A DNA stretch of 64,000 nt from an uncultured Clostridia bacterium (GTDB taxonomy: Bacteria; Bacillota; Clostridia; Christensenellales; UBA1242): contig CALWTF010000010.1 of assembly GCA_944384415.1 (NCBI GenBank), positions 1,990 through 65,989 of the forward strand, read 5' to 3'. The translations under genes were made by a program, and so were the position numbers. The stretch's first letter is position 1, and each line of letters starts with the position of its first letter. Positions 17,984 through 20,124 of this stretch are shown piece by piece. The notes under the pieces are model-generated. The model was not told the origin of the DNA. It worked only from the letters and a program-made list of their open reading frames with translations, and made no database searches.

Positions 17984-19051
17984 ATGATGATGGATACTAT
18001 TGAACAAGAAATTGAAAAAATAAAACTAATTGCGAAACAAAAAAAATATATTAATGAAGAAGATATTTACTTAAGATTGTTAAAATTTGAACCAACTGCT
18101 TCACAATTAGACGAAATAATGTTAAGCCTTAAAGAATTGGGCATTGAAATTCGCAAAGATGAAATCACTTTAAAAGATGAAGAAATTATGATTGAGTCAT
18201 TAATGAACCAAGCAAACATCAATGACCCAGTTAAAATGTATTTTAAAGACATAGGAAAGGTTGGTTTGCTAAGCCCAGATGAAGAGGTAGAGTTAGGCAA
18301 GCGTATGGCTATGGGTGATGAAGAAGCTAAAAAAAGATTAGTAGAGTGTAATTTGAGGCTGGTAGTTAGCATTGCAAAACGATATGTAGGTAAAACCAAT
18401 ATGAGTTTTTCTGATCTAATTCAAGAAGGAAATATGGGGTTAATTAAAGCGGTTGAGCGTTTTGATTATAGAAGAGGTTTCCACTTTTCCACATATGGTA
18501 CTTGGTGGATAAGACAAGCTATATCTCGAGCAATTGCTGACCAAGCAAGAACCATTCGTATACCTGTTCATATGGTAGAAACCATTAATAAATTAGGAAG
18601 AACTAATCGTCAATTGTGGCAAGAACTTGGACGCGAACCAACTGATTCAGAAATTGCTGAACGCATGGGGATAACTGAAGAAAAAGTTTGTGAAATCAAG
18701 CGAATAGCACTTGAACCAACATCGTTAGAAAGCCCTGCTGGTGAGGAAGGCGACAGTGAAGTTTATGATTTTGTTGTTGATGAAAATGCTAAATCGCCTT
18801 TACAGTCTGTGGAACAAAATGTTTTAAAAGAACAGTTGTTGTCAGTTATTGAAACATTGACACCTCGTGAACAAAAAGTTATACGCCTTAGATATGGTAT
18901 TGATGATTTACATCCAAGAACATTAGAAGAAGTTGGAAAAGAATTTAATGTAACAAGGGAAAGAATAAGGCAAATTGAAGCAAAAGCATTGCGTAAATTA
19001 AAAAATCCAAGTAGAAGTAAAAGACTAAAAGATTTTGTTGATGAATTTTAA
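17984..19051 (+). CDS. sigA: RNA polymerase primary sigma factor (SigA/RpoD), copy 1
   Basis: Region 1.2 [11 protein letters not shown], region 2 [43 protein letters not shown], region 3.0 [13 protein letters not shown], region 4.2 [27 protein letters not shown]. Follows dnaG as in Bacillus. Confidence 0.9.
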
Positions 19052-19074
19052 TATACAAAAGTAAAGGGGAAGGT

Positions 19075-20124
19075 ATGGAAAAAGAAATTGAAAAAATAAA
19101 GCAAATAGCAAAAGAAAAAGGATTTATTTATGAAGAAGATATTTATGCAAGACTGATTTCTTTTGACCCAACTGCTAAACAACTTGAAGATATTATTTCA
19201 CAATTAAAGAAAGATGGGATTGATGTTCGCCAAGAAGAAGAAAACAATGATGATGAAATTGAACTTGAACATATGATTAATCAAGCAAACATCAATGACC
19301 CGATAAAAATGTATTTTAAAGATATTGGCAAAGTTAAAAGGTTGACACCCGATGAGGAAATAGAACTAGCCAAAAAAATTGAACAAGGTGATTTGGTTGC
19401 TAAAAAACAATTTGTTGAGGCTAACTTGCGTTTGGTTGTAAGTATGGCTAAGCGTTATATAGGTAAAAGTAATATGAGTTTTGCCGATTTAATTCAAGAG
19501 GGTAATTTTGGTCTTATGCGTGCTGTTGAAAGGTTTGATTATAGAAGAGGATTTAGATTTTCAACTTATGGAACAACTTGGATTAGACAGGCAATTTCAA
19601 GGGCAATTGCTGACCAATCACGAACAATTAGGTTGCCTGTTCATATGGTTGAAACAATTAATCGTATGAGTCGTATAAAAAAACAACTATGGCACGAGTT
19701 GGGACACGAGCCAACAGATTTTGAATTAGCCGAAAAAATGGGATTAACAGAAGATAAAATATCAGAAATTAAACGAATAGCTCTTGACCCAACCTCGTTA
19801 CAAAGTCCTGCCGGAGAAGATGGTGACAGTGAAGTTTATGATTTTGTTGTTGATGAAGAGGCTAAATCTCCACAACAATCTGTTGAGCAAAATGTGTTGC
19901 GTGAACAATTAATGTTAGTTCTTGAATCATTGACACCTCGTGAACAAAAAGTTTTAAGATTAAGATATGGGCTTGATGATTATCACCCAAGAACACTTGA
20001 AGAGGTGGGAAAAGAATTTGGTGTAACAAGGGAAAGAATAAGGCAAATTGAAGCAAAAGCATTGCGTAAATTAAAAAATCCAAGCAGAAGTAAAAAACTT
20101 GTAGATTTTGCTAGTGAAATTTAA
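19075..20124 (+). CDS. RNA polymerase sigma-70 factor, primary-type paralogue, copy 2
   Basis: Same full domain set as copy 1. Hand count gives 60 mismatches over the approx 281-aa core from region 1.2 onward. Own SD AAAGGGGAAGG. Region 2.3 reads [11 protein letters not shown]. Confidence 0.9.
   Translation: [349 protein letters not shown]

Follow-up and report, generated by a model that had tools for sequence, protein, structure and literature searches.

Tandem primary-type sigma factor genes beside dnaG in uncultured gut Clostridia, with a derived and selectively maintained second copy

The window analysed here is a 64,000-nucleotide (nt) stretch of contig CALWTF010000010.1 (GenBank assembly GCA_944384415.1) from an uncultured Clostridia bacterium. 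Directly downstream of dnaG it carries two complete genes for sigma-70 factors of the primary (SigA/RpoD) type, arranged head to tail and called sigA copy 1 and copy 2 below. Sequence comparisons indicated that the pair arose by one in-place tandem duplication in a recent ancestor shared by two species-level lineages. Copy 1 remained the conserved housekeeping orthologue, whereas copy 2 evolved about four times faster, yet under purifying selection. We put the probability at about 0.6 that copy 2 represents a primary-like ('group-2-like') sigma factor of recent origin, which would use sigmaA-type promoters with altered opening kinetics or altered holoenzyme behaviour.

Reality and origin of the tandem pair

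The two open reading frames (ORFs) encode 355 and 349 amino acids (aa) and lie 23 nt apart, in agreement in coordinates and domains with a first-pass annotation of this DNA that had described two full-length SigA/RpoD-type ORFs. The copies were 73% identical in protein sequence over their full length and 75% identical in DNA sequence. The annotation's count of 60 core differences was exact and corresponds to 78.4% identity over a core of 278 aa (the annotation gave approx 281 aa and 79%). The N-terminal ~80 aa shared 59% identity and were more diverged than the core, as the annotation had also noted. No further sigma-70 family gene was found within the window.

The order dnaG-sigA-sigA-trmK, with genes of 353/355 aa and 349 aa and the same 23-nt spacer, recurred in at least eight independent assemblies from different samples and assemblers (assembler types MEGAHIT k87, scaffolds and SPAdes NODE), including NCBI GCA_949289705.1. 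Both genes were intact in every strain assembly. Across seven strain-level sequences, copy 1 showed two single-nucleotide polymorphisms, both synonymous, and copy 2 showed three synonymous and one non-synonymous (Q53K). An assembly or binning artefact, for example the concatenation of two strains' sigA alleles or a collapsed or expanded repeat, might be suspected since every source is a metagenome assembly and a 63-nt stretch identical in both copies could mislead assemblers. However, the copies differ at 25% of their nucleotides, copy 2 matched no other organism's sigA, unique flanks (dnaG and trmK) stood on either side, and a second species, found in Logan assemblies, carried the pair too. 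Because the copies are only 75% identical in DNA and recur together in independent assemblies, the tandem pair is real and not an assembly duplicate; the chance of an artefact is negligible.

In the second species (locus L009) the order was dnaG-sigA (P0002)-sigA (P0003)-trmK. P0002 was 90% identical to copy 1, whose orthologues formed a smooth series (90, 84, 83...% identity), whereas copy 2 (P0001) had P0003 as its sole partner, at 74% identity. A profile built from these two copy-2 sequences and run against 5.8e9 proteins detected no third protein of the copy-2 type. All nine other near relatives, surveyed by exact-protein look-ups, had a single sigA followed by trmK (P0006, P0008, P0009, P0013, P0014, P0023, P0035, P0033 and P0050). 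A single sigA was also present at 79 of 80 background Bacillota loci at the species level, a sample from a genome-collection survey with copy 1 in which the best match listed was 64% identical and close relatives were missed. These counts bear out the annotation's premise that the dnaG-sigA arrangement usually holds one sigA, and the check for dnaG-sigA-sigA in relatives that it had proposed returned the pair, among the near relatives surveyed, in L009 only.

Amino-acid quartet sites of the four genes followed the orthology, concerted and cross patterns at 29, 4 and 2 positions, respectively. Neighbour-joining (NJ) bootstrap values were 100% for grouping the two copies 2, 100% for grouping the two copies 1 and 0% for within-genome pairings, also with the N-terminal two thirds. 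The quartet sites and bootstraps thus show a single ancestral duplication; as the GC content and the GC content at third codon positions (GC3) of copy 2 were the same as those of copy 1, it occurred in place. Independent duplications in each species, or fully concerted evolution, would turn copy-2 orthology into an artefact. At the nucleotide level 46 sites were of the concerted type, against 56 of the orthology type and 18 of the cross type, and the proportion of synonymous differences (pS) between the paralogues within the window (0.569) was below that between orthologues, as such a scenario would predict. The concerted signal was confined mainly to codons 241–330, however, where local conversion tracts explain it better, and with the amino-acid sites and bootstraps on the side of orthology we consider this scenario very improbable. 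Horizontal acquisition of copy 2 from a phage, a plasmid or another bacterium, followed by insertion beside sigA, is even more remote. Although phage-encoded sigma factors exist in Firmicutes, the nearest relatives of copy 2 were copy 1 and the clade's own SigA orthologues, its GC and GC3 were identical to those of copy 1, and no mobile-element genes were found flanking it.

The duplication took place shortly before the two species diverged and probably after the split from the lineage of P0006, the nearest single-copy relative of copy 1. The bootstrap value for a four-gene clade without P0006 was 63%, and in the full-length NJ tree the two copy-2 genes branched outside a group of P0006 and copy 1. 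A candidate explanation of P0006, which has an RW dyad (see below), as a recombinant of copy 1 and copy 2 from unequal crossing-over was rejected, since its 29 diagnostic sites lacked a block pattern and were mostly copy-1-like.

Another single-copy relative (P0008; loci L101 and L102; ERZ17292903 and ERZ16268138), with 83% SigA identity, shared its sample series (ERZ172929xx, ERZ162681xx) with the species that carries the tandem pair. Members of the clade with one and with two sigA genes therefore co-occur in one habitat, which would be useful for comparative metatranscriptomics.

Asymmetric divergence and residue changes in copy 2

Copy 1 was ancestral at 21 of 29 diagnostic sites when compared with 19 near outgroups. 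At ~263 conserved columns, copy 2 had 47–52 changes from the outgroup consensus, and copy 1 and P0006 had 15–17. In a Tajima relative-rate test, 56 unique changes were assigned to copy 2 and 13 to copy 1 (p=2e-7), a result that held with five outgroups and in both species. With synonymous sites saturated (pS 0.57–0.73), we used the proportion of nonsynonymous differences (pN), pS and relative rates in place of dN/dS. Between species, pN was 0.086 for copy 1 and 0.197 for copy 2, with saturated pS values of 0.73 and 0.63, respectively, and by pN/pS the constraint on copy 2 was comparable to that on dnaG and trmK. Orthologue conservation in copy 1 and copy 2 was 0.88 and 0.65 for region 1.2, 1.00 and 0.92 for region 2, 0.95 and 0.62 for region 3, and 0.98 and 0.88 for region 4; region 2 of copy 1 was identical to its L009 orthologue at 72 of 72 positions. 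The copies 2 of both species shared 21 derived substitutions. Taken at sequence level, copy 2 is evolving ~4 times faster than copy 1, yet under purifying selection, and is maintained rather than decaying. The annotation had named decay of copy 2 in relatives as an outcome that would speak against its proposal; copy 2 was intact in all strains. By the relative-rate and ancestral-state tests copy 2 is a derived paralogue, and the description 'near-housekeeping' that the annotation had given it does not hold.

The 3' third of copy 2 has probably been partly homogenised by copy 1 through gene conversion, as judged from the concerted sites, from the 63-nt identical run (Table 1) and from the state of region 3.2–4. 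This run was the longest among all six pairwise comparisons, and the last ~30 codons of the copies were 94% identical in nucleotides. Concerted sites outnumbered orthology sites 7:1 in codons 241–270 and 301–330. Region 3.2–4 was copy-1-like in copy 2 of the window and diverged in copy 2 of L009.

Copy 1 matched the Pfam models for Sigma70 regions 1.2, 2, 3 and 4 (E=1e-14 to 1e-26) behind an acidic, region 1.1-like N-terminus of 74 aa with a net charge of −7. It aligned end to end with its best NCBIfam model, NF006666 (RpoD), with a score of 488.9; the score is below the cutoff of 572, as expected for a divergent lineage. Its score for TIGR02393 (RpoD_Cterm) was 370.1 (cutoff 354). It had the intact tryptophan dyad (W-dyad) in the motif TYGTWW, adjoined dnaG, had same-slot orthologues in relatives at 90–78% identity, and was 60–65% identical to the SigA proteins of Bacillus and Staphylococcus (solved holoenzyme structures 8x6f and 7ckq). 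Copy 2 matched Pfam regions 1.1 (E=5e-7), 1.2, 2, 3 and 4 and aligned with SigA entries in the PDB over residues 9–346 (E=1e-113). Its scores were below both cutoffs (TIGR02393, 347.7 against 354; NF006666, again the best NCBIfam model, 458.2 against 572). The intact W-dyad expected of a group 1 (primary) sigma factor was missing, since every strain and the L009 orthologue read TYGTTW. Missing too were the slow rate and ancestral sequence, as copy 2 had ~3–4 times the substitutions of copy 1 and an orthologue identity of 74% rather than 90%. The annotation had credited both genes with regions 1.2, 2.1–2.4, 3.0 and 4.2 and with housekeeping-type residues; the regions are there, but the residues depart from that type at the dyad of copy 2. 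As a paralogue of a primary sigma factor with conserved regions 2.4 and 4.2, copy 2 fits the description of group 2. It scored below the cutoffs of the established group 2 models, namely RpoS (TIGR02394, 292.8 < 378.7), SigB (NF005920, 340 < 464) and the cyanobacterial families, and in the trees it nested within the SigA radiation of its own clade.

Three of the shared derived changes stood out at otherwise conserved columns: L→R in the 'LL' motif of region 1.2, at its first Leu (R89), L→F at the start of region 2.1 (F113) and W→T at the first Trp of the dyad (T168), in front of an unchanged TGG codon for W169, the equivalent of E. coli W434. Region 2.2/2.3 had two others, K→R and I→M; a further I→L followed region 2.4, and regions 3.0 and 3.2 carried L→M and E→D, respectively. 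No substitution shared by the two copy-2 proteins fell in the 2.4 recognition helix or in the 4.2 helix-turn-helix. The region 2.2 core-binding motif was kept, and regions 2 and 4 were 83–92% identical to copy 1. Region 1.1 was more acidic in copy 2 (net charge −10 and −13) than in copy 1 (−7 and −9) in both species.

The W-dyad has been described as universally conserved in housekeeping sigma factors (PMC4593229). Its first residue, W433 in E. coli, rotates in as a wedge at the −12/−11 junction (Bae et al., PMC4593229). A W433A substitution left initial binding unaffected and slowed isomerisation by a factor of 2–3 at 37 °C and of ~7 at 25 °C (PMC4593229). Alternative sigma factors typically lack the dyad and rarely have Trp at this position, for which weaker melting was proposed (PMC4593229). 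In our census of 244 SigA-type sequences, the dyad was WW in 224, CW in 17, TW in two (both copy 2) and RW in one (P0006), and all 80 background Bacillota loci had WW. The first dyad Trp is thus unusually changeable in this clade, even in apparently sole housekeeping sigma factors.

The seventeen SigA proteins with TYGTCW (Cys codon TGC) belonged to two separate clades of the low-GC Clostridia group. They include P0050 (L098:5505-5531, a Hadza gut metagenome-assembled genome (MAG), 426-kb contig) and P0033 (L100:5490-5516), both in the canonical dnaG-sigA-trmK slot and the only sigma factor within ±5 kb, as well as P0030, P0031, P0034, P0036, P0037 and P0039–P0044. P0006 (L091:1623-1649, ENA ERZ16268267 scaffold_42868), 84% identical to copy 1 and followed by trmK, read TYGTRWIKQ in the dyad region, where an AGG codon places Arg at the first dyad position and Lys replaces the conserved Arg that follows. 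This AGG codon is one step from TGG (W) and one from ACN (T); the contig is only 2.3 kb long, and a sequencing error is possible. A scan of 241 million metagenome records for Y[A/G]TTWIRQA gave a single match (L097:3304-3329, JGI Ga0073905_10017558), a divergent, proteobacterial-like fragment of the RpoD family with a long N-terminus and altered extended −10 residues, unrelated to the lineage of the window.

Both copies and the whole clade also departed from the SigA consensus of Bacillus and E. coli. They had a one-residue insertion in region 2.1 (GK[TS]NMSF versus GRG-MLF; 18380-18400 and 19457-19477), and in regions 2.3/2.4 (18494-18545 and 19567-19618) E. coli Y425 was replaced by Phe (RRGF), A431 by Gly (TYGT) and T440 by Ser (AISRA). 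These clade-specific departures in region 2 could be connected with the tolerance of dyad substitutions.

Possible roles of the second copy

We propose that sigA was duplicated in tandem, in place, in the ancestor of two lineages of an uncultured, low-GC gut clade of Clostridia, after which copy 1 would have stayed the housekeeping sigma factor and copy 2 would have diverged as a group-2-like one. Copy 2 has kept region 2.2, the −10 helix of region 2.4, the extended −10 residues of region 3.0 and, in region 4.2, the −35 helix-turn-helix. With core-binding and recognition elements kept, it should compete for the same core RNA polymerase at the same class of promoters. Its changes cluster in the parts that govern promoter opening and the behaviour of the holoenzyme, namely region 1.1, region 1.2, the start of region 2.1, the W-dyad wedge, and regions 3.1 and 3.2. 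The expected outcome would be two holoenzyme populations, of which the second would form open complexes more slowly or less stably and so differ in its preference among sigmaA-type promoters. The annotation's suggestion of subtly different promoter opening gains some support from this pattern of kept recognition helices and a changed melting module.

Copy 2 most likely shares the mRNA of copy 1, with a Shine-Dalgarno sequence of its own for translation. Simple consensus scans, which are compatible with an internal promoter, found no sigmaA-type promoter-like site on the + strand of the window at 17477-20141 or inside copy 1 of L009, and no terminator-like hairpin between the copies in the window or in L009. 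As neither a private promoter nor a terminator was detected between them, the copies are likely co-transcribed, and together with independent translation this is the simplest reading of the scans. Copy 2 differs in its lack of a detected private promoter from characterised group 2 sigma factors. A private sigmaH-type promoter, as for sigA2 of Clostridioides difficile, was considered and rejected, as a loose AGGA-N11-17-GAAT scan had no match inside copy 1 of either species. The annotation had assigned each gene its own Shine-Dalgarno sequence, which is convincing for copy 2 (AAAGGGGAAGG) but weak for copy 1 (AAAGCGAG). In L009, the spacer of ~16 nt holds a perfect AGGAGG before copy 2. The L009 copy 2 was called as 359 aa with a start 11 nt inside copy 1 (L009:6001-6027); an internal ATG at 6028, with AGGAGG at 5-nt spacing, gives 350 aa and aligns with the start of copy 2 in the window, so that the 359-aa gene call probably begins too early.

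Several points weigh against a specialised role for copy 2. All carriers are uncultured MAGs. Gene conversion, apparently ongoing at the 3' end, opposes divergence. Relaxed constraint would account for fast evolution at a pN/pS far below 1 as readily as a new function would, omega being rough with dS saturated, and the 'shared derived' positions rest on two copy-2 sequences from two lineages. The consensus scans were simple and leave room for an internal promoter. The W→T change is less diagnostic than it appears, and is weakened as evidence of specialisation, because Cys (17 CW) or Arg (one RW) occupies the same position in related, apparently sole SigA proteins (context checked for P0050, P0033 and P0006); the first dyad Trp may be under relaxed constraint across the clade.

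These points lead to an alternative that we judge unlikely, although it deserves serious weight, in which copy 2 is a redundant or dosage duplicate drifting under relaxed constraint, an ordinary sigmaA that would lack a regulon or kinetic role of its own and whose substitutions, W→T among them, would be tolerated and not selected. The replacement of the W433 equivalent by C or R in relatives would then reflect tolerated loss, and gene conversion would still be homogenising the 3' third. Loss of copy 2 might follow in time, and the P0006 lineage may already have undergone it: the copy-2 placement in the NJ tree and three of six copy-1-derived states in P0006 would imply secondary loss there, and the 63% bootstrap value of the four-gene clade leaves scope for it. 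However, a purely redundant duplicate of an essential gene is normally lost or homogenised fast, whereas copy 2 has stayed intact across saturated synonymous divergence (pS 0.63–0.73) with a pN of only 0.197. Two of the 21 derived substitutions common to both species are at near-invariant columns (242/242 and 240/242), and conservation between the two copy-2 orthologues is 92% in region 2 and 88% in region 4. On balance we favour a diverging group-2-like sigma factor. If copy 2 is expressed, it would offer a simple test of how a housekeeping sigma factor begins to specialise and of what the first dyad Trp does in nature. Redundancy that is simply tolerated would make the case an ordinary one.

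More speculatively, and with still less confidence, the residue pattern led us to hypothesize that copy 2 encodes a 'melting-attenuated' sigmaA of recent birth, with one mRNA supplying it and the housekeeping sigmaA in a constant ratio. Its −35/−10 reading heads are identical to those of copy 1, but the Trp wedge is gone, region 1.2/2.1 is altered and region 1.1 is more acidic. Its holoenzyme might therefore open only easily melted or near-consensus promoters, or might act as a brake that ties up core and promoters in slowly isomerising complexes. One promoter class would then be partitioned kinetically rather than by sequence specificity, and the T of copy 2, together with the C and R variants in the sole SigA proteins of sister lineages, would form a natural allelic series at a 'universally conserved' residue.

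Comparison with known systems and layout of the locus

A second group 1 SigA is already known in Clostridia. C. difficile has two group 1 SigA proteins; sigA1 (CD1455) adjoins dnaG and serves exponential growth, and SigA2 (CD1498) is a diverged paralogue (PMC7438776; bioRxiv 10.1101/2021.06.06.447298). Its gene lies ~43 genes from sigA1 and is expressed in stationary phase from a SigH-dependent promoter (PMC7438776; 10.1101/2021.06.06.447298). The lineage of the window, like C. difficile, belongs to the Clostridia and encodes two full-length SigA proteins of the group 1 type, one of them beside dnaG. Compared by description, it differs in that the paralogue lies 23 nt 3' of sigA without a detected private promoter, is younger (73% identical to its partner) and stems from an unrelated, independent duplication. 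Literature searches for tandem sigA or duplicated primary sigma factors in Firmicutes returned only the C. difficile case, and none of the papers in the library searched describes a tandem sigA-sigA operon.

The only other tandem pair among the 80 species-level Bacillota loci was in a Clostridiales MAG, UBA8949 (L084, DMJC01000303.1, 49.5% GC), where sigA (2257-3330) is followed on the same strand by a SigA-like gene (3347-4459), with ~16 nt between the ORFs and ~150 nt between the aligned segments. This second gene is full-length, with both the WW dyad and the helix-turn-helix of region 4.2 preserved, and was 48% identical to copy 1 of the window. The pair is an independent event that is much older or more diverged. 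Duplication of this kind is rare, though not without precedent, as a source of a second primary-like sigma factor. The present pair stands out by its tandem arrangement in what appears to be one transcription unit, by its young age and by the missing first dyad Trp of copy 2.

Copy 2 resembles group 2 sigma factors (RpoS; actinobacterial HrdA/C/D and SigB; cyanobacterial SigB–E) in its origin from a duplicated primary sigma factor, its retention of regions 1.2–4, its similar −10/−35 recognition and its competition for core, the last two as predicted from the kept elements. Group 2 sigma factors generally keep the W-dyad, and RpoS lacks region 1.1, whereas in copy 2 region 1.1 is kept and even more acidic, and the first dyad Trp is gone. 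The group 2 families are ancient, phylum-wide, encoded at separate loci and under dedicated regulation, in contrast to copy 2, which was found in two species and in tandem. RpoS is held to derive from a duplication of rpoD (PMC7527412).

Much innovation in global regulation has come by way of extra primary-like sigma factors (RpoS, Hrd, cyanobacterial group 2). Almost every known case is ancient, and the first steps after duplication are therefore no longer visible. This pair is young, and its two copies can be compared with the ancestral state and with sister lineages that have one copy. It displays asymmetric divergence, kept DNA-reading heads, changes in promoter-opening parts and, probably, continuing gene conversion. 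Its value is limited by the uncultured state of the organisms and by the two-SigA precedent of C. difficile.

The genes around the pair followed the operon-like order cdd-era-recO-dnaG-sigA-sigA-trmK (Table 1). The dnaG-sigA operon of the Bacillus subtilis type has the same neighbourhood, era-recO-dnaG-sigA-trmK (yqfN-like), but with a single sigA, as at 79 of the 80 Bacillota loci.

Table 1. Features of the tandem sigA locus, in window coordinates.
Feature	Position	Strand	Remarks
dnaG (primase, 595 aa)	16176..17963	+	ORF; Pfam Zn_ribbon_DnaG/Toprim/DnaB_bind on the identical gene in L001–L005
sigA copy 1, 355 aa (353 aa from third ATG at 17990)	17984..19051	+	Conserved housekeeping orthologue
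W174/W175 codons TGG TGG, intact W-dyad of copy 1	18503..18508	+	Equivalent to E. coli sigma70 W433/W434 and B. subtilis W192/W193 (PDB alignment ranges)
63-nt stretch in region 4.2 of copy 1, donor side of probable conversion tract	18949..19011	+	Identical to 20022-20084
Intergenic spacer, 23 nt (TATACAAAAGTAAAGGGGAAGGT)	19052..19074	+	Holds copy 2 Shine-Dalgarno AAAGGGGAAGG; without terminator
sigA copy 2, 349 aa	19075..20124	+	Derived, fast-evolving, selectively maintained primary-like paralogue
R89 codon AGG, copy 2 (L→R, first Leu of region 1.2 'LL')	19339..19341	+	Leu in 242/242 other SigA-type sequences; Arg in both copy 2
F113 codon TTT, copy 2 (L→F, start of region 2.1)	19411..19413	+	Leu in 240/242, Met in 2; Phe in both copy 2
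T168 codon ACT, copy 2, replacing first dyad Trp (E. coli W433, B. subtilis W192)	19576..19578	+	L009 copy 2 codon ACA
63-nt stretch in copy 2, recipient side of probable conversion tract	20022..20084	+	Identical to 18949-19011
trmK-like tRNA methyltransferase gene	20140..20814	+	Directly 3' of sigA in all single-copy relatives

The start of copy 1 (ATGATGATG) was called from different ATG codons, giving proteins of 353, 354 or 355 aa; gene callers begin the gene two codons downstream of 17984, which yields the 353-aa form.

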